A stretch of DNA of 64,000 nucleotides from Candidatus Omnitrophota bacterium (GTDB lineage Bacteria > Omnitrophota > Gorgyraeia > Gygaellales > Profunditerraquicolaceae). The stretch covers positions 14,477 to 78,476 of the forward strand of contig JBAZKL010000002.1 of NCBI GenBank assembly GCA_041650835.1, written 5' to 3'. This document shows, one piece after another, positions 42 to 43,005 of this stretch (the stretch's first letter is position 1; every line of letters begins with the position of its first letter). The notes beneath the pieces were generated by a model. It was not told where the DNA came from, searched no databases, and saw nothing but the letters and a program-made list of their open reading frames with translations. The translations under genes were made by a program, and so were the position numbers.

Positions 42-1979
42 TTGTTTGATGATGTGTTGCGGGATTATTTAATTTGTCTCTACAAATCAAAAGAGCACAG
101 AAGCAAGAACCTCGAGAAATGTCTAACTATTTGCCAAAATCTTAGGAAATTAGGAAAATTTGTTCCTTTTACGTTCGAGTTGGAAGCGGCCATTTATGAG
201 GAAATGGATCGACTAGATGAAGCCATGTCTTTATACCTCGAACTGTCGAAGCGTGAGCCAAAGAATATTCGTCATAAACTAAATTATGCCAAAGTTATGA
301 TTGATATAGGAAGGGAAAAGGACGCGGGAATAAGACTGCTATATGAGGTTAAGGATGAGGTTGAAGACAAGGATTCCTTCCTTATTTTGGCGAGAGCATT
401 CTTAAAGATTCAAAACCATGACGAATCCATAAAGCAATTATTTAAAGCGTTGGAAATCGATTTCAATAATCCGGAGATCCAGCTGTTTTATATTTACACG
501 TTTACGAGCCGAAAAGATAAAAAGAGCGAAATGCTAGATTCCGAAACTGTGCGTGAAGATTTCTTTGTGAAGATTAAAAAGAATGGACACGATCAAGAAT
601 ACTTAGTTACTGCGAATCCTAAATCGTCGATTGCCAAATTCGAGTTATATAAGGAATCCGGTTTGGGTAAGGCACTTTACGGGAAAAGGGTTGCGGAAGA
701 AATAATAGTTAAAAATGAATACAGTGCAGATGATGTTATCAAAATAGTTGAGATTAAAAGTAAATACGTGAAGGCCTTCCAGAATATTTTAGATAATTTT
801 AATATTTCTTTTCCGGACAATAAGGCAATTTGGAAAGTTGAAGCGAGTCCGGAAAGGCTGAAAGATATGCTGAACAAATCGTCGGATAGATCAACCAAGA
901 TAATGGAGATGTATTTATCAAAGAATATTACTATCGGGGCGCTTTCTGCTTTTTCTGGAAGAAGTCTATTCGTTTGTTGGGGCGCGCTTATTGGACAGGG
1001 GTCTAAATTGTACTGTGCTACTGGCAGTGCTGTGGAGCAAAGAAAAGAACAGGAGATTATTCTTAATTCAAACAGGGTTATTATCGAGCCGATCGCTTTA
1101 TTTACTCTTGGTTTTTTAAATTTAGTGGATTTGCCATCAAAGATATTTTCGGAGGTCTATGTTCTTAAGGCTACCTTGGATGAGCTAGATATGGAAATCG
1201 TAGAGTTAAGCAAAAGCGAAGATGCGGGACTTACAACGCTTTTTTCTAAAGAAGGCAAAGCATTTCGACAAGAGATCTCTGCTGAAAATATTAAGATGAA
1301 AATAGATTTTCTTAAAAAGATGCGAGATTCGCAAGGGTTGATAACAACGGGATTAGAACACCCACTGGATGATAGTTTTAATGGCAAAGAAAAGATACTA
1401 GGTTTGCCATATATATATTCGATTCAAGCTTGTGTTGAAAAGCAAGCGCCGCTGTTTTGTGACGATGTTTTTTTTAGAGAATTAATTCGCAATGAGCATA
1501 AGATAGATTCTTTCGGTGTTCAAAATTTTCTTGTAGTTGCTCTTCAAAAGGGAATCATAGCCGAAAACGATTATTGCGATAAGATATTAGAATTAATAAA
1601 GATTGGATACTTCTATCTTTCTGTATCCGCAAAAATGCTTTTTTATTATGCGGAGAAAGACAGTTTTCAAATACAGCCGGGAAATGCGTTTGACATAGCC
1701 ACCGCAATTCTTGATTCAAGAGAAACATCTATTGAATCGCTGCTTGCAGTATTAACAGATTTTATGAAGCTAATGCTTATTGAATCCCTGCCCGATGAAA
1801 TCAAAGATAAATATTTACATTTAATCATAAGTCTTTTAGCAAAACGCGGATCGCCCCATAAAATGATTAAGATTTTCAGTCAAGTTCTCGCTAAGAAGCT
1901 TGGGTTAGCTGAGCATCTTATGGTACAGGTTAATAAGAAAATAGATCAGTGGATTAAAATTAATTACCCAATCGTGTGA
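42..1979 (+). CDS. Hypothetical TPR-like protein, AT-rich; possibly 5'-truncated by the window edge
   Basis: 645-aa ORF called from a TTG. The reading frame stays open upstream to position 1, so the true start may lie outside the window. Codon usage is strongly A/T-biased compared with every downstream gene. The N-terminus has TPR-like helical repeats. I recognise no catalytic motif with confidence. Confidence 0.6.
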   Translation: MFDDVLRDYLICLYKSKEHRSKNLEKCLTICQNLRKLGKFVPFTFELEAAIYEEMDRLDEAMSLYLELSKREPKNIRHKLNYAKVMIDIGREKDAGIRLLYEVKDEVEDKDSFLILARAFLKIQNHDESIKQLFKALEIDFNNPEIQLFYIYTFTSRKDKKSEMLDSETVREDFFVKIKKNGHDQEYLVTANPKSSIAKFELYKESGLGKALYGKRVAEEIIVKNEYSADDVIKIVEIKSKYVKAFQNILDNFNISFPDNKAIWKVEASPERLKDMLNKSSDRSTKIMEMYLSKNITIGALSAFSGRSLFVCWGALIGQGSKLYCATGSAVEQRKEQEIILNSNRVIIEPIALFTLGFLNLVDLPSKIFSEVYVLKATLDELDMEIVELSKSEDAGLTTLFSKEGKAFRQEISAENIKMKIDFLKKMRDSQGLITTGLEHPLDDSFNGKEKILGLPYIYSIQACVEKQAPLFCDDVFFRELIRNEHKIDSFGVQNFLVVALQKGIIAENDYCDKILELIKIGYFYLSVSAKMLFYYAEKDSFQIQPGNAFDIATAILDSRETSIESLLAVLTDFMKLMLIESLPDEIKDKYLHLIISLLAKRGSPHKMIKIFSQVLAKKLGLAEHLMVQVNKKIDQWIKINYPIV

Positions 1980-2201
1980 AAATAAATGCGAGAATAGTTT
2001 TCCGATATCAACCGCGCGGCGGTGATTGTGAATATTAGCAAGGCATTCGTTGATTGGCAGTAAATCTTTCAAAACCCCTGCATAAGCATCCCCCGAATTA
2101 TTACCAATTTGCGGTAACGACCCCATTGTCAAAATAATCCGTTGTTGTAAGATCAAGACAGACTCGCGGGACAGCTGATCACTGTTGCCGTTTTGCAGAA
2201 A

Positions 2202-2242
2202 GCCATTTCCAGTCGACTGGCCGGAGATGGCTTTTTCTTTTT
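2202..2242 (+). terminator. Rho-independent terminator
   Basis: GCCATTTCC...GGAGATGGC 9-bp stem with one T-G wobble. It encloses the perfect 12-nt palindrome CCAGTCGACTGG and is followed by TTTTTCTTTTT. Confidence 0.6.
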
Positions 2243-2244
2243 AG

Positions 2245-2650
2245 GGTTCGACACTTTGAAAAATATTGCGTGTTCATAGATGAGGGGGACATTTGAGCGA
2301 AAAAATCTGTATATACGCAGTAGGGTGCAACACTTTGGCAAAAAAGGGCGTATATACGCGGTAGGGGGTGTTACACTTTTCGATTTTTTGCGTGTTCATA
2401 GGTGAGGGGTGCGAAACTTTGAGCCTAAAAACGCAATAACTACTCTGAGGGGCAAAAAAGTTCCGACACTTTTCGGAAAAATCCGGAATATACGCTTAGG
2501 GAGTGAAACTGGTGAAGAAAGTGAAAATATTTCCGGCAGGTTTACCAAAAACATCGTATGTAGCTAGTAGAGGGGCTTGTGAAGTGAAAATAAATAAAAT
2601 ATTTCCGTCAGTTTTCCAGTTCTTTGCGTATGTAGCTAGTAGGAGGCAGT
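2245..2650. repeat. Iteron-like direct-repeat array (putative replication origin or regulatory region)
   Basis: Three families of direct repeats. (a) TTGCGTGTTCATAGRTGAGGGG at about 2266 and 2388. (b) ATATACGC-N-TAGGGRGTG at about 2310, 2352 and 2487, each followed by ACACTTT(T/G)-N-AAAAA; the ACACTTT motif occurs 4 times. (c) A ~50-bp unit ATATTTCCGnCAGnTTTnCCA...GTATGTAGCTAGTAGnAGG, present twice at about 2528 and 2601. Confidence 0.7.
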
Positions 2651-2656
2651 GAAACT

Positions 2657-2887
2657 ATGAAAGACAAGTGCTTTGAAGCGGGAAATCTCTATCTGGCTAC
2701 GTATTTGCTCTCTTGCGGGTTTGCTATGAGGGGCATTGAGGGATCGGGACGGCTCAAGAGGATCCTGTTTGACGACATCCCGGCCGTTCATAAGGCATGC
2801 GAAGAGTTTTTCGCCGATTCGGAGGCACGCAAGCTGTTTGACTGTTACCGGAGGGTTAAGGATTATTTATTTCAAAATGGAGTTTAA
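2657..2887 (+). CDS. Small hypothetical protein, translationally coupled to the primase
   Basis: 76-aa ORF with an AGGAGG Shine-Dalgarno 8 nt upstream. Its TAA stop lies 2 nt before the primase ATG. The overlapping ORF 2736..2954 is out of frame and rejected. Confidence 0.55.
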   Translation: MKDKCFEAGNLYLATYLLSCGFAMRGIEGSGRLKRILFDDIPAVHKACEEFFADSEARKLFDCYRRVKDYLFQNGV

Positions 2888-2889
2888 AA

Positions 2890-5256
2890 ATGGAAGACGA
2901 GAGAAGAAAAGAGAAGAGAAAAATGGAAGAGATCATACCGCAGGAATTGCTTAAGCTACCGAGCTGGGTTGGGTATCAGCTCAGGCGTAACAAAGGCCGC
3001 ATTGATAAAGTTCCCATGAACGTCCTGACCGGACGTCCTGCCAAAAGTAACGATCCCAGCACATGGACAGATTTCGAGACTGCAGTTGATTTGGTGAGCC
3101 AGCGCGGATATGCGGGTGTTGGTTTTATGTTTAGTCCGCCTTATGTGGGCGTGGATATAGACCATTGCGTCAAAGACGGAGCTATCGCGCCGTATGCGGT
3201 GGAAATCTTAAAGGCGCTCAATTCATATTCGGAATATTCGCCCAGCGGCACCGGCATTCATATTCTTTGTAAAGGCGAGATCGCCCGGGCATGCAAGATT
3301 TCAAAGATCGGGCTTGAGATTTATACCAAGGGCAGATTTTTTACCGTTACCGGCAATCGCCTTGAAAATTATCCGGCTGATCTTAACGAGTGCACTGATG
3401 CGCTAACCGCCATATTCAGCCGGGTTGTAGATAAAAGGCCCGCGGACGACATTTTTGCTTTAATCTCTAAAAGTAAAGACGCGGAGAGGTTTCAGCGGCT
3501 CTATTCCGGCCAGTGGCAAAACGATTATCCATCTCAGAGCGAAGCGGATTTGGCGTTAGGCAACAAGCTGGCCTTTTGGACTGGTAAAGACGCCGGGCGT
3601 ATGGATTCGCTTTTTCGCCAGTCCGGACTCATGCGGCCCAAGTGGGATGAGAAACATTTTGGTGACGGCCGGACCTATGGCCAATCGGTCATTGAAAAGG
3701 CAATCAGCGGGTGTAGTGAGGTTTATGGAGGAAACGGGGCTTCGGGGCCGGTTGCTAAGGCTAAGCTCACGCAGGGCGAGATCATTACCCGCGATTGCGA
3801 GGAGAGCATTAAGGACTTCTTTCGCGATCAGCATGGCAATGCTTTTGTGGTGCTTCCGGTGGAAAGCCATTTTGAGGTATGCCCGACAACGGGCGTGCGC
3901 TTTAGGAATTGGAAGGCGACTCGATTCCGTGATCGCTTTGGCGTACCGCCTAAGATTGAGGCACTTAATCAGGCACGGATTCAGGTTGAGGCGCGCTGTG
4001 GAAGTTCCCGGCAGGTTGAGCTCTTTAATCGAGTAGGCTGGCATAACGGGAAAGTTTATTACGACCTGACAACGCCGGACTATCGAGGTGTAGTTATCGA
4101 TGAAACCGGCTGGGACGTTGTGCCGTTGCCGCCGATATTCAGGCGTTATCAGCATCAAGCCGAGCAGGTGATTCCGGTTAAGGGCGGCGACCCTAAGGCG
4201 ATATTACGTTTCTGCAATGTTAATCCGGACGATCATTGTCTTTTCATGGTCGCCATCGCATCATTCTTCATTCCCAATATTCCGCATGTCATTTTAAGTC
4301 AGACCGGCGAGCAGGGCTCCGGTAAATCGAATAATTCCCGCAAGATTAAAGGCTTGGGCGATCCGTCCAAGGTCATGCTGATCTCAACTCCCAAAGAATT
4401 GGAGCAGGCGCAGATGACCGCGGAGAAGCACTGGATCAGCACCTTCGATAATATCTCCAAAATTTACGAGTGGTTTAGCGATTTCCTCTGCCGAGGCGTT
4501 ACCGGCGAAGGCGACATGAAACGCAGTCTTTATACCAATGACGACGAGTTCATTCGTTCATACAAACGGTGCTTTGTATTGAATGGTATTGGCACGTCTT
4601 TGTGGCGGGCGGATTTGCTCGACCGGGCCATTATCTTTGATATTCCGGTTTTAAAGAGGAGCCGAGCAGAAAAAACTATGGAAGACGAATGGCAACGGGA
4701 GCTTCCCGGGATTCTGGGTGGATTCTTTACTGCCATTTCAAAAGCAATGAATACTTTCTCGCAAGTTACCGGACATGAAAAGTTTCGCATGTCTGATTTT
4801 GCTCAATGGGGAGGCGCGCTGGCGGGGGCATTGGGTTATTCGCAGGATGAGTTTTTCAAAAAGTATCAGGAGTCAGTGGATCGTAAATGGCAGGACACCG
4901 CGGATGACAGCTCGTTTGCCAAGAGACTGATCGAACTCATGGATAAGCACGCAGGCTATTGGGAAGGCTCGGCCGCGGAGCTTTTGCACGAGGTAACCCA
5001 CGATGACGACGATGAGAAAGGCATGCCCAAGACCGCCAAGTGGCTTTCAACAGAGCTACTGCGTATTGCGCCGGTCATGCGTAATGTCGGAGTGGATATC
5101 GTAAAGAAAGACAAGCGCGAGCCAGGTACCGGCCGCAGGCTTTTTGTTCTTAGGCGAACCGAGTCAAAGTCGTGTGAGTACGGGTGTGAGGAAGGTGTGA
5201 GCAGAGGCGTGCTTTGTGAGGATCGTGCGGAGGTGGACAGTGACCGGCCGTTCTAA
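2890..5256 (+). CDS. Primase-polymerase (AEP prim-pol) / SF3 helicase fusion replication protein
   Basis: The N-terminus carries prim-pol motifs: VGVDIDH (hhDhD) and SPSGTGIHILCKG (SxSGxGxH). The middle region carries a Walker A motif, GEQGSGKS, typical of D5/P4-type helicases. The last ~30 codons are encoded by GTGTGAGG heptamer repeats. An alternative start at M12 (position 2923) is possible. Confidence 0.85.
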   Translation: MEDERRKEKRKMEEIIPQELLKLPSWVGYQLRRNKGRIDKVPMNVLTGRPAKSNDPSTWTDFETAVDLVSQRGYAGVGFMFSPPYVGVDIDHCVKDGAIAPYAVEILKALNSYSEYSPSGTGIHILCKGEIARACKISKIGLEIYTKGRFFTVTGNRLENYPADLNECTDALTAIFSRVVDKRPADDIFALISKSKDAERFQRLYSGQWQNDYPSQSEADLALGNKLAFWTGKDAGRMDSLFRQSGLMRPKWDEKHFGDGRTYGQSVIEKAISGCSEVYGGNGASGPVAKAKLTQGEIITRDCEESIKDFFRDQHGNAFVVLPVESHFEVCPTTGVRFRNWKATRFRDRFGVPPKIEALNQARIQVEARCGSSRQVELFNRVGWHNGKVYYDLTTPDYRGVVIDETGWDVVPLPPIFRRYQHQAEQVIPVKGGDPKAILRFCNVNPDDHCLFMVAIASFFIPNIPHVILSQTGEQGSGKSNNSRKIKGLGDPSKVMLISTPKELEQAQMTAEKHWISTFDNISKIYEWFSDFLCRGVTGEGDMKRSLYTNDDEFIRSYKRCFVLNGIGTSLWRADLLDRAIIFDIPVLKRSRAEKTMEDEWQRELPGILGGFFTAISKAMNTFSQVTGHEKFRMSDFAQWGGALAGALGYSQDEFFKKYQESVDRKWQDTADDSSFAKRLIELMDKHAGYWEGSAAELLHEVTHDDDDEKGMPKTAKWLSTELLRIAPVMRNVGVDIVKKDKREPGTGRRLFVLRRTESKSCEYGCEEGVSRGVLCEDRAEVDSDRPF

Positions 5257-5470
5257 ATGTGTGAGTTTGCTCACGTGTGCTCACGCTTGCTCACAGGCGT
5301 GCTCACAAGGTCAAGGCTACAGCCATCAAGGGGTTATGTATTGTTGTGAGGTTTGTGAGGCTAAATTCCTTCTCTTTTTAGAAATCAATAAATATATAGG
5401 AAGAGGCGTATACATCGCCTATGGATGGGCAGGTGTGAGGATAGCGATTTTAGCCTCACATTGCTCACAC
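5165..5470. repeat. Dense cluster of GTGAG(G/C) / (G)CTCAC heptamers (putative second iteron set or origin)
   Basis: At least 12 copies of GTGTGAGG, TGCTCAC or CCTCACA in both orientations within ~300 bp. One stretch has four tandem TGCTCAC copies at about 5267-5310. The cluster spans the primase stop codon. ORF 5216..5536 from the track is most likely an artefact of this repeat. Confidence 0.7.
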
Positions 5471-5663
5471 ATATGCTTACGGGTCCTTCGGAGGGGGTGT
5501 GGGCCGCGGGTCGGGCGAGGCGAAGTCTGTGAGTGATGTCGGATTTTCAAAATGTCGTGTCGTGGTCGTATGGGCGTATTTCGGGGTGTCCGGTTGACAA
5601 GGGATAAAAAAGGCGTTTTCCGTCGTGAAACCGGCTTAAATTTGGCTCAAAATCGCCTCAAAA

Positions 5664-5714
5664 GCGATGTCCTAAAATACGACAAAACCGGACATTTGCG
5701 ATGTCCGAATGTCC
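5664..5714. promoter_or_regulatory. Operator-like repeats: GCGATGTCC x2 including the palindrome GGACAT-N5-ATGTCC
   Basis: GCGATGTCC occurs at 5664-5672 and 5697-5705. GGACATTTGCGATGTCC (5690-5706) is an inverted repeat, and a third ATGTCC follows at 5709-5714. The site lies just upstream of the small ORF and the HTH gene. Confidence 0.4.
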
Positions 5715-5731
5715 TACTGTAGAAGAGAATT

Positions 5732-5929
5732 ATGATCAGGGAAGCGAGCACAATTAATGTGAAGGCGGTAACGCCGCGAGGCTGGGACGCTTTAGAGATA
5801 AAGCTAAAAGGAAGGGGTCTGTCCAGCGTGGAAATTCAAGAAGCTCGTAAATCATTCTTTGAGGGGATTGAGACATTATCAAAGATGTTTTTGGCAATGT
5901 ATTCGGCAGAGAAGAAACCGCTTGTATAA
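5732..5929 (+). CDS. Small hypothetical protein
   Basis: 65-aa ORF between the repeat region and the HTH gene. It has only a weak RBS and no recognisable motif. Confidence 0.3.
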   Translation: MIREASTINVKAVTPRGWDALEIKLKGRGLSSVEIQEARKSFFEGIETLSKMFLAMYSAEKKPLV

Positions 5930-5962
5930 GGTTGTATATTACGGTATACTGGGCACCATTAG

Positions 5963-6154
5963 ATGAGGGTGTCAAATATGAAAACATACTCCATGACAGA
6001 GACGGCAAAATTACTGGGCGTGCACCGGCAGACCATGATCAATTGGATCCGCAGGGGATGGGTTAAGCCCAAGCGTGATTATAAGGATTGGCCGGTGTTT
6101 ACGGACGAGTGTATCGCCAAGATTAAGGCATGGCGAGAGACGTTAAAAGGATAA
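5963..6154 (+). CDS. Excisionase-family / AlpA-like helix-turn-helix DNA-binding protein
   Basis: 63-aa protein containing TETAKLLGVHRQTMINWIRRGWV, the classic excisionase-family HTH signature. It sits immediately upstream of the recombinase; its stop is 1 nt before the recombinase ATG. Confidence 0.7.
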   Translation: MRVSNMKTYSMTETAKLLGVHRQTMINWIRRGWVKPKRDYKDWPVFTDECIAKIKAWRETLKG

Positions 6155-6155
6155 G

Positions 6156-7835
6156 ATGAGAGTAGCGTTATATACAAGGGTAAGTACAGAAGATCAGGCG
6201 CGCGAAGGTTTTTCGCTGGAGGTGCAGAGGACATATCTTTTGCAATACGCGAAAAATTTCGGCTGGGATGTTTTTTGCAGTATGTCGGGCCGGGATATTT
6301 ATATGGATGATGGTTATTCCGGCGGCAATATGGACAGACCGGCGTTGCAGAGACTTTTGTTTGACGCGCGCAATAAGCAGTTTGATCTGATCATGGTGTA
6401 TAAGCAAGATCGCCTAAGCCGTCGGCTTAAGGACCTGTTAGGACTACTTGAGGAGATTGATTCGCTGGGCATCGGGTACAAATCAGCGACCGAGCCATTC
6501 GATACCACGTCCAGCGCCGGGAAGATGGCGATTCAGATGTTAGGCAGTTGCGCGGAGTTTGAACGCAATCGCTTAGTCGAGAGGGTATTCCCGGGCATGG
6601 TGGTTGGTGTTAAAAGAGGTCACTGGCAGGGAGCGCGCTACGCGCCGTATGGTTACCGTTACAATAAAGAAGTCAAGAAACTCGAAGTCCATCCGGAAGA
6701 GGCAAAGATCGTTAAAGAGATTTACGCGATGTACATAAGCGGCACGAGCACTTCGCGGATCGCAGGACATTATTACAATCTTGGGATCCCTTCAAGACAA
6801 GGCGGACGATTTTATAATAAATTCATTTCCAATATTCTGCAGAGCAAGGTCTATTTAGGGATGCTGGTGTGGAATAGACGTCGCTATAACACAAAAGAAA
6901 AGACAAAGAACGGCGAAGGCAAAGGTTACAAGTATGTGAATAATGATCCGTCCAAGATTATTGAAGTACCGAATACTCACGAGCCGATAATTACGCAAAG
7001 AGATTTTGATGAGGCCAGAACGCTTCTCAAACGTAACCGCACCAATGGTGTGGTTAGATTCAGGAATAATGTTTATCAGCTTTCCGGTATTCTGAAATGC
7101 AATGAGTGCGGAGGCAATTACCGCGGAATCACCGCGACAGTTAATCATCGCACCAAAATGCGGCGGCCATGGTATCGTTGTTCTTCCAAAGGCATACCTC
7201 ATATTAAGTGTAGCAATAAATCTGTTACGGCTGACGCGATCAATAAGCAGGTTTGGGATATTGTAGAAGTCATCCGTCAGAATCTTCATGTGCTTGAGGA
7301 ACTGGGTGACATGATCAAACTTAACGCATCCGAGCCGGAGCAGTTGTATGTCGAGCAATTAGAGGATAAGGACGCGCTTCTTAAGAAGAATATCGAGAAG
7401 CAAAAGGGGATCTACGAGTTGTTTTCAGAGGATAAAATTAATCTCGCGCTCTATAAGGATAGGGCCGAGCTTTTGAGTAATGAGGAGAAAAAACTAAAGC
7501 AGGATATCAAGGCGATTCAGCTTAAGATTCTGGATAAGCGTAATTCCGTTAACCTTGTAAAGGCGACGCAGGATTTCCTTTTGAGGTTACGGAGCACGCC
7601 GGATGACCGCCAGTTGGATTATCTGGTCAAAACCTTTATGCGGATCATCTTTAAATCGATCCACATCCAGAATCAGGAGATCGTGAAGTTCGATCTAAAC
7701 GAGCCTTGGAAGACTTGCTATGAAGAGGGGATGAAATGGTTGAAAACGAGCGAAAAGACGACAATACAGGCGATTCCGGAGGCAAAAGCCCGAAGAAGTT
7801 ACGTGTGCTTTTGCGCACCTTCGGATGTCAAATGA
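6156..7835 (+). CDS. Large serine recombinase (integrase)
   Basis: N-terminal resolvase catalytic motif RVALYTRVSTEDQ. It also has a recombinase domain and a zinc ribbon (CNECGGNYRG...WYRCSS), followed by a long coiled-coil C-terminus. Total length is 559 aa. Confidence 0.85.
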   Translation: MRVALYTRVSTEDQAREGFSLEVQRTYLLQYAKNFGWDVFCSMSGRDIYMDDGYSGGNMDRPALQRLLFDARNKQFDLIMVYKQDRLSRRLKDLLGLLEEIDSLGIGYKSATEPFDTTSSAGKMAIQMLGSCAEFERNRLVERVFPGMVVGVKRGHWQGARYAPYGYRYNKEVKKLEVHPEEAKIVKEIYAMYISGTSTSRIAGHYYNLGIPSRQGGRFYNKFISNILQSKVYLGMLVWNRRRYNTKEKTKNGEGKGYKYVNNDPSKIIEVPNTHEPIITQRDFDEARTLLKRNRTNGVVRFRNNVYQLSGILKCNECGGNYRGITATVNHRTKMRRPWYRCSSKGIPHIKCSNKSVTADAINKQVWDIVEVIRQNLHVLEELGDMIKLNASEPEQLYVEQLEDKDALLKKNIEKQKGIYELFSEDKINLALYKDRAELLSNEEKKLKQDIKAIQLKILDKRNSVNLVKATQDFLLRLRSTPDDRQLDYLVKTFMRIIFKSIHIQNQEIVKFDLNEPWKTCYEEGMKWLKTSEKTTIQAIPEAKARRSYVCFCAPSDVK

Positions 7836-8983
7836 ACGTGCGGGATTCGGAGGTGATCTGCGGACTTTTAAAGAATGCCGGTTTCCAGATCGTCCAGGAA
7901 GAAGATGAAGCAGATGTAGTTATCTTTAATACCTGTTCTGTCCGTCAGCATGCCGAAGATAAGGTTTGGAGCGAAATAGGAAGAATAGCTAAATCGAGAA
8001 AAAAAGATTGCTTCGGCGCAAAAAACGCGCCTCGCAATGACACTCGTTGCGGTTATCCGATTATTGGATTGGTTGGATGCATGGCGCAGAATTATAAAGA
8101 AGCAGCCTTTGACCGCTCTGAATACCTCAATTTTGTCGTGGGGCCGTCAGATATAGATAAGATTCCCGGAATTGTTGCTAAAGTCGCCAGTCGCCAGCCG
8201 TCTGTCACCAGTTCAAATTTATTTGAAACGAAAATCTGGGAGACAGATGGAACTATCAGGCCGGAAGATGTATATCATAGCGGTTTTTATGAAGAAAAAG
8301 ACCACGCCTTTGTCGTTATATCCGAAGGCTGTTCCAATTATTGTTCTTATTGCGTGGTCCCTTTTGTGCGGGGAGAAATACACCATCGTCCGCATAAAGA
8401 GATCATGAATGAAATAAAACAGGCCCTCGATAGGGGGATCAGCCGTATTACGCTCCTGGGGCAGAATGTGAATGCGTATGGATATGAAGATGTTAGTTTC
8501 GTTAAGCTTGTTGAGTTCGTTAATGCCGTGAAAGGATTAAAAGAGTTCAGTTTTATTACGTCGCACCCGAAGGATACTTCGCTTGAGTTATTCAAAGCGA
8601 TGGCTGACCTGGAAAAACTGAAAAAATACCTGCATTTGCCTGTTCAGGCCGGCTCAGACAGGATCCTGAAATTAATGAATCGCGGGTATACTCAGAAATT
8701 TTATCTGGACTTGGCGGATAATTATCGTAGAATTGTAAAGGGTGGCGTATTGACATCTGATATCATTGTCGGCTTCCCTACGGAAACCCGGGAAGAGTTC
8801 CAGGATACCTATGACCTGGTTAAACGCGTAGAATTTAACGCGGCTTATATTTTTAAGTATTCTCCCCGTCCGCATACGCATGCGCAGCACCTGGTTGATG
8901 ATGTCGATAAACAGGAAAAGGCGCGCCGGCATAAGCTGGTTTTAGAGCTGCAGAAGGCGATCTCTAAGAAGGTCAAAAAGTAA
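7736..8983 (+). CDS. miaB: tRNA-i6A37 methylthiotransferase MiaB
   Basis: N-terminal KKLRVLLRTFGCQMN motif, comparable to E. coli KKLHIKTWGCQMN. Radical-SAM motif CSNYCSYC and a TRAM C-terminus are present. The first 100 nt overlap the recombinase 3' end in another frame, so the start codon is uncertain (ATG 7736 or GTG 7805). Confidence 0.85.
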   Translation: MVENERKDDNTGDSGGKSPKKLRVLLRTFGCQMNVRDSEVICGLLKNAGFQIVQEEDEADVVIFNTCSVRQHAEDKVWSEIGRIAKSRKKDCFGAKNAPRNDTRCGYPIIGLVGCMAQNYKEAAFDRSEYLNFVVGPSDIDKIPGIVAKVASRQPSVTSSNLFETKIWETDGTIRPEDVYHSGFYEEKDHAFVVISEGCSNYCSYCVVPFVRGEIHHRPHKEIMNEIKQALDRGISRITLLGQNVNAYGYEDVSFVKLVEFVNAVKGLKEFSFITSHPKDTSLELFKAMADLEKLKKYLHLPVQAGSDRILKLMNRGYTQKFYLDLADNYRRIVKGGVLTSDIIVGFPTETREEFQDTYDLVKRVEFNAAYIFKYSPRPHTHAQHLVDDVDKQEKARRHKLVLELQKAISKKVKK

Positions 8984-37384: not shown

Positions 37385-39156
37385 TGAAGTATTTCATGCG
37401 GGGCGCCTATGTTTCTGGTTTTTTTCTGTTGGTTTTAACTTGTTTTCTTTTTGTCCGGTGCGCGCACGCGCAAACTAATAGCGAACAGGCGGTGAAATCA
37501 TCGGAAACCATGCTGGCCGCGATCGAGCAGCCGGCTGCCGCCGCTCCCGAAGCTGAGGAAGCCCCTGAAGCGAAGATGAGTGAGCCGATCACCGACAGCT
37601 TGAACGCTTCAGAAAATGTAACGCTTGATTTTAAAGAAGCGGATATTAATAATGTTTTAAAGATCATTTCATATAAGGCCGGCGTTAATATCGTCGCGAC
37701 CCCTGATGTCCTCGGCAATGTAACTATTAAATTGGTTGATGTCCCCTGGGAACAGGCTTTGGACATTATCCTGAAAACGTACGGGTTTGGCTATCAGAAG
37801 CAGGGCAATGTGATCCTGGTCACGAAACTTGAGAATATGGCTAAGATCCAGGCGGAAGAAGCGTTGAAGACGGAAATTGTCACGCTTAAATTCCTTGATG
37901 CCCAGGATGCCCAAAGGATACTTATTCCGATGCTGTCTCAACGGGGTAAGATCTCTGTTTTGTATACTAAGGGGCAAAAAGGGTGGAAGTTCGGGTCTTT
38001 TAAGATCGGAAAAGAAGAAGTGGCGGCCCGTGAATTGACCAGGGAGGCAGAAACCGAGAAAACAATTGAGACGATCGCGATAGAAAGGACTGCTACCGGC
38101 TTATCCGCGATAAAGGCAGAGTTTGAGCCGTCGGTCAAATCCAAAACCCTCGTTATAACCGATACTTCATCGACATTGGACAGGATCAAGAACGTTATAC
38201 TGCCCCAGGTTGACAGGAAGCCAAAGCAGGTGCTGATTGAAACGAAGATGATGGAAGTGACCCTGGATAAACTTAAAGACGTCGGCTTTGATTGGGGGAC
38301 CGGCTCCACAGGCGCCGAATCAAGCGCTCTTACGTCCATAGACCTTAATAAAACCGGCGCCGGGACATTGGGCGCTCACGCGCTCGGGTCGGAGGTTTTA
38401 CCTTCGATATTCTCACCCAAGTCTAACAGCGCTACGCAGGGCATCGTCGGTGTTGAGCCGTATAACGCGGGTTTAGAGATCTTGTTCAAGAAGCTGACCG
38501 GTACTCAATTTGAAGCGATCCTGCACGCGCTGCAGGAGGATGTTGATACCAATACACTTTCTTCTCCTCGAATTTTAACTATTGACAATCAGGAAGCATC
38601 TATTTTGGTTGGCTTTCATACTCCGATCCTGGTTTCTGAAGTGACCGCGGGCAGTACCTCCGGCGAAGGAGCTACCGTTACTCAGACGTTGGATTATTAC
38701 CAGGAGATCGGTATCCGGCTCAATGTTGTGCCGCAGGTCAATGAAGATAATTATATTAATATGATCCTGCATCCGAGTGTGACTTCATCATCCTCAAACG
38801 TGACCGCTACATCGACGGCAGGCACGACAACGACCAATACGAATTATCCTATAATCGACGTGCGGGAGGCTCAGACTCAGGTTTTAATGAAAGACGGCGA
38901 GACGGTTGTTATCGGCGGGCTTCTCAAAGACGTAAAAAGTAAAAGTGTGATCGGTATCCCTATAATCAGTAAGATCCCGTATATCGGTACCTTCTTCAGA
39001 AGGGAAACAATTAAGACGGCAAAAGTAGACCTGCTCATATTCATTACGGCGCGCGTCGTTAACGATGATGAAACATCGGCTGAAGATATCGCGAAACTCG
39101 AAGAGCGCTTAAGCGGGTTATCGTCAAAGGCGCCGGCAAAAAAAAAGAAGCAATAA
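37381..39156 (+). CDS. pilQ: Type IV pilus secretin PilQ
   Basis: Signal peptide, N0/secretin-N domains and the C-terminal secretin motif VIGGLLKD...GIPIISKIPYIGTFF. Confidence 0.85.
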   Translation: MMKYFMRGAYVSGFFLLVLTCFLFVRCAHAQTNSEQAVKSSETMLAAIEQPAAAAPEAEEAPEAKMSEPITDSLNASENVTLDFKEADINNVLKIISYKAGVNIVATPDVLGNVTIKLVDVPWEQALDIILKTYGFGYQKQGNVILVTKLENMAKIQAEEALKTEIVTLKFLDAQDAQRILIPMLSQRGKISVLYTKGQKGWKFGSFKIGKEEVAARELTREAETEKTIETIAIERTATGLSAIKAEFEPSVKSKTLVITDTSSTLDRIKNVILPQVDRKPKQVLIETKMMEVTLDKLKDVGFDWGTGSTGAESSALTSIDLNKTGAGTLGAHALGSEVLPSIFSPKSNSATQGIVGVEPYNAGLEILFKKLTGTQFEAILHALQEDVDTNTLSSPRILTIDNQEASILVGFHTPILVSEVTAGSTSGEGATVTQTLDYYQEIGIRLNVVPQVNEDNYINMILHPSVTSSSSNVTATSTAGTTTTNTNYPIIDVREAQTQVLMKDGETVVIGGLLKDVKSKSVIGIPIISKIPYIGTFFRRETIKTAKVDLLIFITARVVNDDETSAEDIAKLEERLSGLSSKAPAKKKKQ

Positions 39157-39356
39157 AATAACAGGCATGCTTGGGTGAGCACGCACAGAAGGCGGCTTGT
39201 CCCAATCTGGATTTTAAAAATACGTTAAAAAATGCGAGTACGTAAAAGCGCAAAAAGATATAATTTTTTAAAGGATTCAGGGCTTATTTTTAAGTTAAAA
39301 CAGCCAGGCGCCCCTTGTCTTTTTGCGGTATAACGCATTCTTTTTTAAAATCAGAT

Positions 39357-39400
39357 GGGACACCCCAAAGTGCCTTAAACGCGGGTGTCCTTTTATTTTT
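39357..39400 (+). terminator. Rho-independent terminator after the pilMNOPQ run
   Basis: GGGACACCC / GGGTGTCC 8-bp stem with a 17-nt loop, followed by TTTTATTTTT. Confidence 0.55.
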
Positions 39401-39411
39401 AAAAAGAAAAC

Positions 39412-39732
39412 ATGGTTAAATTCAACTTCAGTTTTTCCAAAACAGGGTACATGAAGTATATTTCACATTTGGACCTGATGCGTTTGTTTACCCGCGCGTT
39501 TCGCCGCGCCGGATTCGCGATAAAGATGACCCAGGGGTTTAGTCCGCATCCCAAATTCAGCATCAATCGCGCGTTAAAATTAGGATTAGAGAGCCAGGAT
39601 GAACTTGCCGCTGTCAGTTTACGGGAGAGCCTGGATACACAGGATTTTCAGGAACGTTTGCAAAAGCAAATGCCTGAAGGCATAACTATTAAACAGGTAT
39701 ATGAGGAGGAAAAGTCAAAGCCCAGAGATTGA
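39412..39732 (+). CDS. TIGR03936 (DUF2344)-like radical-SAM-linked protein, short form
   Basis: N-terminus MVKFNFSFSKTGYMKYISHLDLMRLFTRAFRRAG...GFSPHPK matches the family's conserved N-terminal region. It is adjacent to an RNase E/G gene, the usual context. Confidence 0.5.
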   Translation: MVKFNFSFSKTGYMKYISHLDLMRLFTRAFRRAGFAIKMTQGFSPHPKFSINRALKLGLESQDELAAVSLRESLDTQDFQERLQKQMPEGITIKQVYEEEKSKPRD

Positions 39733-41604: not shown

Positions 41605-41919
41605 ATGTATGCAGTAGTTGAAGTTGGAGGCAAACAGTACAAAGTTGAAAAAGGGGATGTTATTCGCGTTGAAAAATTAATTGCCGAAGAAGGCGCTGAA
41701 ATCGCGTTGGATAAGGTGCTTTTGACCGTCAAAGACGATGATATTTCAGTCGGCACTCCGTACCTCAAGGGCGCCCAGGTCACCGCGGTGTTGTTAAAGC
41801 ATGTTAAAGGTGAAAAAGTTATTTCATATAAATATCGCCGCAGAAAGTCTTCTCATTGGAAAAAGGGCCACCGCCAGAAGTTATGCGAATTGGAGATCAA
41901 ATCCATAAAAGCCGGTTAA
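41605..41919 (+). CDS. rplU: 50S ribosomal protein L21
   Basis: MYAVVEVGGKQYKVEKGDVIRVEKL. Confidence 0.9.
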   Translation: MYAVVEVGGKQYKVEKGDVIRVEKLIAEEGAEIALDKVLLTVKDDDISVGTPYLKGAQVTAVLLKHVKGEKVISYKYRRRKSSHWKKGHRQKLCELEIKSIKAG

Positions 41920-41949
41920 CTATAGTATAGCTTCAGTTTTCGTTAATAT

Positions 41950-42050
41950 CGTTTAGTTGTTTATTATCGTTAATGCCGTTTGAAGATCTAATCGGAACGA
42001 ACGATAATAACGGCATTAACGAAACTAACGAAACTAACGATAATAACGAT
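41950..42050. repeat. Tandem AACGAWAMT 9-mer repeats and an inverted repeat in the rplU-obg spacer
   Basis: aacgaaact aacgaaact aacgataat aacgataat, plus inverted copies ttattatcgttaatgccgtt / aacggcattaacg. Confidence 0.6.
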
Positions 42051-42051
42051 A

Positions 42052-43005
42052 ATGTTCATTGATAACGCTAAAATATTAGTCAAAGGCGGCAATGGCGGTA
42101 AAGGGTGTTTCAGCTTTTACCGCGATAAATATGAACGTAGAGGTGTCCCCGACGGAGGCAGGGGTGGCAGCGGGGCTGATATCATATTGCGCGCTGACCG
42201 TAACCTTCGGACACTGCTTGATTTTTCCTATAACAGGCATTTTTACGGGCACAAGGGCGGCAATGGCTCCAGCAAGAATTTGAAAGGCAAGAACGCTGCG
42301 TCTATGATAATTCGCGTTCCCTGCGGAGTTATTGTCAAAGAAATCGCGACAGATTGCGTGTTAGGGACGCTTGATGCCGACCAGGAAGAGCTCGTTGTTG
42401 CCCGGGGTGGTGAAGGCGGCCACGGCAACAAGCTTCATGATGAGGCCACCGAAGGGTTTCCCGGCGAAGAACGCGAGTTGATGCTTGATCTAAAGCTCAT
42501 CGCCGATGCCGGGCTTATCGGATTTCCGAACGCGGGAAAATCCACGCTTATTACCGATATATCTCACGCTCAATCCAAGATAGCCGCGTATCCGTTTACC
42601 ACAAAATACCCGGTGTTAGGCGTTGTCGGGGAAGATGACGAGTCTTTTGTTATCGCTGATATTCCCGGTTTGATCGAAGGTTCTCATCAAGGACGCGGCC
42701 TGGGGGACAGGTTTTTGCGGCATGTAGAACGCACAAAGATACTTATTCATATTATTGATATGGCGGGCACTGAGGGGAGAGACCCGCTTGACGATTACCG
42801 CACGATCAATGAAGAGTTAAAGGGCTATAGCCCTGAAGTTTATAAAAAACCGCAGATTTTAGTGGCAAATAAGATGGACCTGGATAACAGCCGGGAAAAT
42901 TTCCTGCGTTTTAAACAGGCCGTAAGAAAGAAGATCTATCCGATCTCCGCCTTGAAACAGGAAGGTTTGGATGAGCTCATTAAAGCCATACGAAAAAAGC
43001 TGTAA
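42052..43005 (+). CDS. obg: GTPase Obg
   Basis: Obg fold (MFIDNAKILVKGGNGGKGCFSF...) and G motifs GFPNAGKST and DIPGLIEGS. Confidence 0.9.
   Translation: MFIDNAKILVKGGNGGKGCFSFYRDKYERRGVPDGGRGGSGADIILRADRNLRTLLDFSYNRHFYGHKGGNGSSKNLKGKNAASMIIRVPCGVIVKEIATDCVLGTLDADQEELVVARGGEGGHGNKLHDEATEGFPGEERELMLDLKLIADAGLIGFPNAGKSTLITDISHAQSKIAAYPFTTKYPVLGVVGEDDESFVIADIPGLIEGSHQGRGLGDRFLRHVERTKILIHIIDMAGTEGRDPLDDYRTINEELKGYSPEVYKKPQILVANKMDLDNSRENFLRFKQAVRKKIYPISALKQEGLDELIKAIRKKL

Follow-up and report, generated by a model that had tools for sequence, protein, structure and literature searches.

A dense array of short repeats lying across the 3' end of a primase-helicase gene is likely to be the vegetative replication origin of an integrative element of about 5.7 kb in a Candidatus Omnitrophota genome, with the primase-helicase acting as its self-loading initiator. 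The array occupies positions 5165-5470 of a 64,000-nucleotide stretch of contig JBAZKL010000002.1; the whole stretch is termed the window herein. We base this reading on sequence comparison among related loci and on analogy with the origins of staphylococcal pathogenicity islands (SaPIs).

The repeats, termed iterons herein, are built on the core GTGAG, which was found at these positions:

5174, 5186, 5197, 5216, 5261, 5346, 5355, 5435, 5529, plus strand: GTGAG core
5270, 5280, 5290, 5302, 5455, 5464, minus strand: GTGAG core

Fifteen GTGAG/CTCAC copies thus lie between 5174 and 5529, compared with 72 window-wide. The longer TGTGAG matched 18 times on both strands of the 64 kb, 13 of these within 5173-5533, and six of the nine TGCTCAC matches in the window fell within 5197-5468. 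A preliminary description of this DNA had reported at least 12 copies of a heptamer on both strands over about 300 bp, including four tandem TGCTCAC units, and had named comparison with shuffled sequence as a check. We counted 14 GTGAG cores in 5165-5470 and located the four tandem units at 5268, 5278, 5288, and 5300. When the check was run with dinucleotide-preserving shuffles of 5165-5470 as the local null, the core was far above expectation (shuffle mean 1.0, maximum 6; 0 of 5,000 shuffles reached 14), as was TGTGAG (12 observed versus 0.3 in shuffles; 0 of 5,000); the motif is about 50-fold enriched locally. The enrichment is independent of post hoc motif choice, because the top count of any 5-, 6-, or 7-mer in the interval, whatever its sequence, also exceeded that in all 2,000 shuffles. 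The array is the strongest local 6-mer cluster of the whole window; other k-mer clusters were seen at ~39000-39600 and 41700-42100 (TTAAAA, 11 copies per 400 bp; TAACGA, 6 copies per 400 bp). The repeat unit is best written (T/G)TGTGAG(G/C), and of the 7-8-mer proposed earlier the enrichment held, the exact 8-mer GTGTGAGG being present just twice. The copy at 5529 is part of a separate conserved module downstream and is not kept as GTGAG in relatives, so the array ends at ~5470, in agreement with the right edge given before.

The iterons form two clusters, the first of which straddles the stop codon:

5173..5220, plus strand: left arm of cluster I, four direct TGTGAG (5173, 5185, 5196, 5215) in the last primase-helicase codons
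5221..5256, plus strand: gap in the array, encoding the acidic C-terminal tip ..DRAEVDSDRPF, then the TAA stop (5254-5256)
5260..5307: right arm of cluster I, one direct iteron (5260-5265), then four inverted CTCAC (5270, 5280, 5290, 5302)
5345..5359, plus strand: left arm of cluster II, two direct iterons 9 bp apart (TGTGAGGTTTGTGAGG)
5365..5400: AT-rich spacer, candidate DNA-unwinding element, with 17% GC at 5370-5399
5434..5439, plus strand: extra single iteron in the spacer, of variable position and orientation among relatives
5455..5469, minus strand: right arm of cluster II, two inverted iterons 9 bp apart (CCTCACATTGCTCACA)

Cluster I comprises nine sites in a long imperfect palindrome centered at the gene end; its inverted iterons are spaced 10, 10, and 12 bp apart, it has no AT-rich center, and the gap contains a 30-bp block of 70% GC. 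Four of the 14 iterons precede the stop codon and ten follow it, the first of them 4 nt past the stop. Cluster II is also a long imperfect palindrome, with its arms forming an inverted repeat (I1) of 24 nt that is 83% complementary and has 77 nt between the arms. Single-strand folding gave z = -3.8 for cluster I (5165-5310) and z = -4.2 for cluster II (5340-5475). An Rfam scan of 1900-8100 returned one match, on the cluster II hairpin and at chance level (E = 0.6), so no known RNA was recognized there.

Cluster II has the layout expected of an origin. SaPI origins carry 6-12 iterons of 5-6 nt right downstream of rep, and around an AT-rich region at their center stand two or more iterons per side, in opposite directions (PMC9371898). 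Because cluster II fits this rule, we read 5345-5469 as the putative core origin and 5365-5400 as the candidate unwinding element. The preliminary description's likening of the array to a rep-adjacent origin of phage-inducible chromosomal islands (PICIs) or satellites was borne out for the layout, which fits the SaPI rule at conserved positions, and failed for PICI gene content.

The array layout was well conserved among 15 full-length relatives (58-93% protein identity). Relative to the stop codon, the in-gene iterons lie at -83, -71, -60, and -41 and those after the stop at +4, (+14, +24), +34, +46, +89, +98, ~+200, and ~+209, all of them offsets that are nearly identical in the 15. Those at +89 and +98 were present in nearly all relatives with the window's class of replication protein (class 1), and the AT-rich stretch occupies the equivalent place in all relatives. 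The extra iteron, at +178 on the plus strand, was shared by just the window, L001, L002, and L008; other relatives have an inverted copy near +160. Across the non-coding part of 18 elements, conservation was 0.87 for iteron cores versus 0.65 for spacers (Mann-Whitney p = 7e-11). Three more metagenome contigs had a matching array layout, two of them with the integrase upstream and divergent. The array was kept whether cargo, an integrase, or a phage-like module lay downstream. As an observation on its right border, ~1-kb cargo ORFs (open reading frames) without a Pfam match were located in L004-L007, L015, L016, and L026 exactly between the array end and the conserved block that follows it, and the equivalent of ~5470/~5477 is a boundary between modules and a hotspot for cargo insertion.

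More distant loci allowed the iteron sequence to be compared with each gene of the element. In L041, a Dehalococcoidales element, the C-terminal half is 57% identical to that of the window's replication protein, the primase N-terminus is different, and the motif TGTGAAT is arranged on the same plan: in cluster I, four in-gene copies encoding GVNVGVNVCECPVNV, the stop, then one direct and three inverted copies; in cluster II, two direct copies, an AT-rich stretch, and two inverted copies. Conversely, L018 is nearly identical to the window in DUF5659 (96%), the helix-turn-helix (HTH) protein (97%), and the integrase (99%), and 81% identical in the primase N-terminal part. Its C-terminal half is unrelated to the window's and carries D5_N, DUF5906, and Pox_D5 domains (class 2), and its origin, directly after the stop, consists of three direct TGAC(A/G) 9 bp apart, ~85 nt, and two inverted TGTCA. 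In L003, L009, and L039 the C-terminal half is 69-81% and the primase N-terminal part 48-71% identical to the window, DUF5659 is divergent or absent, HTH and integrase are absent, and the iterons are GTGAG or GTGAAG. L042, with 49% identity, has three ATGACGC, an AT-rich stretch, and three inverted copies. TGTCAG repeats at +195 to +400 of class-2 loci were considered as iterons and rejected; they belong to the downstream module, whatever the replication-protein class. In these sequence comparisons, iteron type followed the C-terminal half of the replication protein and no other element gene. The replication protein is thus the only candidate binder among the element proteins, because no co-variation with the motif was seen for the HTH protein, DUF5659, the 65-amino-acid (aa) ORF, or the integrase. 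Within class 1, the residue that follows VMR, at the end of the candidate recognition helix (N732 in the window), was N where the iteron was GTGAG, H for GTGAAG, and S for GTGAAC.

The protein has the parts that such an initiator would use:

2890..5256, plus strand: primase-helicase gene ('PriRep', 788 aa; Pfam PF22763, phrog_1829)
aa ~12-280: archaeo-eukaryotic primase (AEP) primase-polymerase with NrS-1 helix-bundle domain
aa 473-480: Walker A motif GEQGSGKS of the superfamily 3 (SF3) helicase
aa 675-756, coding 4912..5157, plus strand: C-terminal alpha-beta-alpha-alpha-beta-beta domain, putative iteron reader
aa 759-788: predicted disordered tail with the iteron-encoded part, pLDDT near 30

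In searches against PDB sequences, aa 14-279 matched NrS-1 primase-polymerase (6A9W and others; E = 2e-35) and the SaPI5 PriRep/primase-helicase 7OLA (E = 6e-28). A Pfam scan assigned the C-terminal half to no family. An AlphaFold2 model of aa 297-788 (pLDDT 86, pTM 0.81) was used for Foldseek searches, which returned African swine fever virus (ASFV) PrimPol (E = 3e-10), the NrS-1 C-terminal region, poxvirus D5/E5, and 7OLA, with the best TM-scores for SaPI5 7OLA_C (0.49 and 0.54). The modeled fold of the C-terminal half thus matches that of the SF3 helicases in primase-helicase fusions. For aa 675-756, two independent models gave the alpha-beta-alpha-alpha-beta-beta order typical of a winged helix. 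Fold searches with this domain alone returned weak matches (E >= 0.08) that included winged-helix initiator domains, namely those of Cdt1, pi bound to iteron DNA, Cdc6/ORC, and RctB. We consider aa 675-756 a possible winged-helix-like domain that may read the iterons, a role that a C-terminal winged helix of the replication protein has in SaPI-type origins, with AKWLSTELLRIAPVMRN (aa 716-732) as candidate recognition helix and KREPGTGRR as basic wing.

Other observations concern the same half of the protein. The C-terminal tip (5233-5253, aa 782-788; ..DSDRPF) is kept in both of the otherwise unrelated C-terminal halves, with the variants EVDSDRPF, EVDYSERPF, and DDTRPY. It resembles the acidic C-terminal tip of single-stranded DNA-binding protein (SSB; DDDIPF), and by this analogy may be a short motif recruiting host replisome proteins. 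In a protein search, the C-terminal half occurred in fusion with no fewer than four kinds of N-terminus (PF22763, PF09250, PF01807, and PF00772), and it is a mobile module common to small elements and probable prophages. Distant relatives of this half were located in phage-like contexts adjoining large terminase genes (L041 1455-8670 and L043 1190-7218), beside a serine recombinase in L041 and tyrosine recombinases in L043.

As the preliminary description had noted, the repeats encode the primase tail, with four copies in codons 762-777 (..SCEYGCEEGVSRGVLCED..). Copies 1, 2, and 4 of the cluster I left arm are read as Cys-Glu, and copy 3, in another frame, as Val-Ser. Over the last 32 codons of 15 genes, the Cys of the tail Cys-Glu pairs was encoded by TGT in 30 of 30 cases, as TGT-GAG or TGT-GAA; outside the tail, TGT accounted for 39% of the Cys codons, and Cys-Glu pairs there used TGC in 15 of 25. 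The residues of copy 3 track the iteron variant (Val-Ser for GTGAGC, Val-Arg for GTGAGG, Val-Lys for GTGAAG, and Val-Asn for GTGAAC). The number of CE units also varies in relatives, one iteron fewer giving one CE unit fewer. Codon usage and these variants indicate that the in-gene copies are held by selection on the DNA, and that it is the peptide that follows the DNA rather than the other way round. With cluster I overlapping the gene, the peptide ..CE.GCE.GVS...CED.. would be set by the DNA motif, and it would be tolerated because it sits in the predicted disordered tail.

These features suggest a sequence of events for replication of the element. The serine recombinase and the small HTH protein would excise the element as a circle. 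The domain at aa ~675-756 would then read the (T)GTGAG(G/C) iterons, as co-variation and the SaPI precedent suggest. Two helicase rings, assembled on the opposed iteron pairs (5345-5359 and 5455-5469), would melt the intervening 17% GC stretch, and the primase-polymerase domain, judging from its family, would prime on the opened strands. Cluster I (5173-5307) might be an accessory binding platform that raises local occupancy or, alternatively, might provide copy-number or autoregulatory control; both roles are speculative. It is treated as accessory here because it is absent from the class-2 and L042 origins and kept from Omnitrophota to Dehalococcoidales in class 1.

Several points weigh against reading the array as an origin. 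Support for it is comparative or by analogy throughout. Iteron type and the C-terminal half are adjacent, and co-inheritance alone could give part of their co-variation; the correlation of VMR[N/H/S] with the motif is confounded with phylogeny. No terminal overlaps that would indicate excised circles were found in the short contigs L003, L011-L013, L019, L020, L025, L029, L030, and L038-L040. (L038 and L040 were considered as circular permutations and set aside, as their gene order differs, the integrase being upstream and divergent.) The class-2 and L042 origins lack cluster I, so that this cluster is inessential to the origin type. A wider proposal, which we put forward tentatively and think on balance unlikely, is that cluster I is a functional site apart from the core origin. 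By binding there, at the end of the gene that encodes it, the replication protein would link initiation with its own expression or with control of copy number, through a transcription block or origin pairing, for example. Regulatory DNA would thus have dictated the disordered tail across great evolutionary distances, in what would be the first described minimal self-replicating element family of Omnitrophota, targeting miaB.

The preliminary description had also suggested, from the presence of this array in addition to an upstream one, two functional sites, for example an origin and a partition or packaging site. A second site of that kind was not supported. The upstream array (2244-2655) is made of ~40-nt units (GGGT..ACACTTT..N..TATATACGC or TTGCGTGTTCATAG.TGAGGGG) and, immediately ahead of the DUF5659 start codon, two tandem units of 72 bp that end in CGTATGTAGCTAGTAG; there is a single isolated GTGAG and no GTGAG cluster. 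Scans of the element ORFs in 2091-7850 with Pfam, PHROGs, and NCBIfam revealed no ParA/ParB, ParR, small terminase, or capsid genes. The upstream array goes along with the module of DUF5659 and the N-terminal primase part, irrespective of iteron class, and is probably a promoter or operator region with no relation to the GTGAG iterons.

The array might instead be an operator or roadblock for transcription, at which the replication protein, or some other protein that binds DNA, would occupy the rep 3' end and the intergenic region and control rep or read-through into the excision and integration genes. Cluster I lends this some weight, as it straddles the gene end without an AT-rich center and is separable from the core origin, being absent in class-2 loci and L042; moreover, no terminator-like site was found after the gene, so transcription probably crosses the array. 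Cluster II, however, with its 17% GC center, has the canonical origin layout, the array is kept regardless of the genes downstream, and the other candidate binders (HTH, DUF5659, the 65-aa ORF, and the integrase) fail to co-vary with the motif. We therefore judge an operator to be improbable as an account of the whole array, although such a role may hold for cluster I alongside origin function.

Still less probable, to a degree that we give it little credence, is a packaging (pac/cos) site or partition centromere that a ParB-like protein or the small terminase of a helper phage would recognize. In its favor, centromeres and some pac sites typically contain arrays of repeats, small primase-bearing integrative elements can be phage satellites, such as the PICMIs (minimalist chromosomal islands that are phage-inducible; PMC10803314), and a distant relative of the gene adjoins a terminase gene in L041. 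Against this, the scanned element ORFs include no ParA, ParB, small terminase, or capsid-related gene, viral contigs yielded no close relatives, and inverted pairs around an AT-rich stretch are an origin signature; a binder from outside the element would also leave the change of motif with the C-terminal half unexplained. The remaining alternative, that the repeats are a by-product of a repetitive peptide (e.g., a Cys-rich metal-binding tail) or of recent slippage duplication with no DNA-level function, is scarcely credible. The tail CE.GCE.G....CED does look superficially like a Cys motif, but of the 14 copies ten lie outside coding sequence, copy 3 has a different frame, and the synonymous sites are fixed (TGT, 30 of 30). 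The tail is also predicted to be disordered, the number of its CE units varies among relatives, and the array is conserved across phyla as the spacers diverge.

The element that carries the putative origin is compact:

2091..7850, plus strand: integrated element, ~5.7 kb, from homology with related loci; borders approximate
2244-2655: upstream region of longer repeats
2657-2887: DUF5659 gene
5475-5730: conserved non-coding module
between the non-coding module and the HTH gene: 65-aa ORF
between the 65-aa ORF and the recombinase: 63-aa HTH, excisionase-like gene
6156-7835: large serine recombinase

The ORF scans recognized just DUF5659, the primase-helicase, the HTH/excisionase-like protein, and the serine recombinase. 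Homology with related loci starts at 2091-2096 and stops at 7836-7851, and the window resembles an Omnitrophota chromosome, all close relatives being Candidatus Omnitrophota metagenome-assembled genomes. Every locus with a downstream integrase abuts miaB at ..LLRTFGCQMN, from which we infer that the element targets the miaB 5' end and supplies a replacement N-terminus. In the window at 7736-7850, a miaB-like ORF begins inside the integrase 3' end in another frame, and the element appears to give miaB a new N-terminus (MVENERKDDNTGDSGGKSPKKLRVLLRT) up to the FGCQMN motif. The borders are approximate because the two ends share just the 7-nt TGTCAAA (2127 and 7826) as a possible att site, and at the left end we found no original 5' fragment of miaB that had been displaced.

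Directly left of the element lies a 645-aa TPR + PIN protein (42-1979; PF20698, PIN domain of TPR-GreAB-C-PIN system); L022 likewise has a TPR + PIN neighbor, with 86% nucleotide identity. To the right of the array lies GGGTCCTTCGGAGGGGGTGTGGGCCGCGGGTCGGGCGAGGCG (window 5478-5530), which is conserved more strongly than any other non-coding block of the element family; it was found in 23 loci of both replication-protein classes and is kept even where ~1 kb of cargo separates it from the iterons. An RNA structure for 5476-5545 was rejected (RNAalifold consensus energy -3.6 kcal/mol, almost no co-variation). The adjoining module upstream of the 65-aa ORF (5535-5725) has its own repeats, TGTCG/TGTCC, some of them inverted (CCGGACAT..ATGTCCG), replaced in other loci by TGTCAG inverted repeats, whatever the replication-protein class. 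It is possibly the operator/promoter of the excision-integration operon. Counts from a consensus promoter and terminator scan of 1950-6200 were not above those in shuffles.

Among viral contigs and phage and plasmid records, just the primase domain was matched (~30-43% identity) and no record covered >= 80% of the protein; these collections thus held no close relative of the element. A literature search found no paper describing these Omnitrophota elements. Dehalococcoides IME1 (bioRxiv 10.64898/2026.09.15.751708) was considered and is of a different type, ~23 kb with a tyrosine recombinase.

If read correctly, the array and its protein provide a defined origin and initiator pair for Omnitrophota, an uncultivated phylum without replicons or genetic tools, and the 2.7-kb gene-plus-origin cassette is a candidate minimal replicon. 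The C-terminal half would be a widespread helicase/origin-binding module without a Pfam family that is swapped between elements along with its iterons. The tail offers a clean case of a DNA-binding-site array fixing the codons of a predicted disordered protein tail, and the natural variants GTGAG, GTGAAG, GTGAAC, and TGTGAAT, together with one candidate specificity residue, make the DNA constraint directly testable.

The site would work in the manner of a SaPI or P4-type origin that is paired with a primase-helicase. The closest parallels among known systems are the Rep/PriRep origins of SaPIs (SaPI5 PriRep 7OLA; SaPIbov1/SaPI1 ori). Both have an SF3 helicase initiator, fused to an AEP primase as in SaPI5, and short iterons that begin at the rep 3' end and form opposed pairs around an AT-rich stretch. 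In both, the C-terminal part of the replication protein and iteron specificity go together (PMC9371898; comparative evidence here). Unlike in SaPIs, the window array starts inside the coding region and includes a second, symmetric cluster of nine sites without an AT-rich center, and sequence similarity is confined to the primase domain (aa 14-279). The window element, of ~5.7 kb and in Omnitrophota, has a large serine recombinase, and no packaging or interference genes were found in it. PICIs carry a master repressor and genes that hijack a helper phage (small terminase, capsid-size redirection, interference), and they are packaged by that helper. We do not assign the window element to the PICIs, given that the Pfam, PHROGs, and NCBIfam scans showed no helper-hijacking genes and that viral contigs contained no close relatives.

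In lambda and Stx phages, the iterons of the O initiator lie inside the O gene, and iteron number changes the number of O residues (PMC7466680). The window resembles them in that four iterons encode part of the replication protein's own tail. The lambda origin, however, is mid-gene including its AT-rich tract, with direct iterons of ~19 bp and an O protein that is not a helicase, whereas in the window just the accessory cluster overlaps the last ~30 codons and the AT-rich stretch and core iterons are intergenic. With four of 14 iterons coding, an intergenic AT-rich stretch, and an initiator that carries a helicase, the array is not of the lambda type.

P4 alpha combines primase, SF3-type helicase, and a C-terminal ori-binding domain reading short iterons in one polypeptide. 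The class-2 relatives carry the D5_N, DUF5906, and Pox_D5 domains typical of the P4 alpha type, but a Pfam scan found none of these on the window protein, and there is no second iteron site equivalent to crr, no second GTGAG cluster occurring in the element or the window. The replicon is therefore not placed with the P4 alpha type. PICMIs are similar in size (~6 kb) and in their core of integrase, small HTH regulator/excisionase, and primase-type replication gene, without capsid-remodeling genes (PMC10803314). They are defined by AlpA, a DUF3987/DUF5906-type primase, and Fis, with helper-phage induction and packaging shown experimentally (PMC10803314). In the window element, no DUF3987/DUF5906 was found on the primase and no Fis family protein among the ORFs, the 63-aa protein giving a weak HTH_8 (Fis-family) match below threshold.

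Classical RepA/pi iteron plasmids have direct repeats of ~17-22 bp, a WH1-WH2 Rep, usually DnaA boxes, and host helicase loading. The array differs from this type in its unit (5-7 bp, in inverted sets) and its initiator (a primase-helicase), DnaA boxes not having been searched for. Nor is it classed as a partition centromere or pac site, as the ORFs of 2091-7850 yielded no gene for a cognate ParB/ParR or a small terminase. The type of site is otherwise well known, and to it this array adds two modest twists: an accessory palindrome that spans the stop codon and lies in the protein tail, and a helicase/origin-binding module that is swapped together with its iterons.

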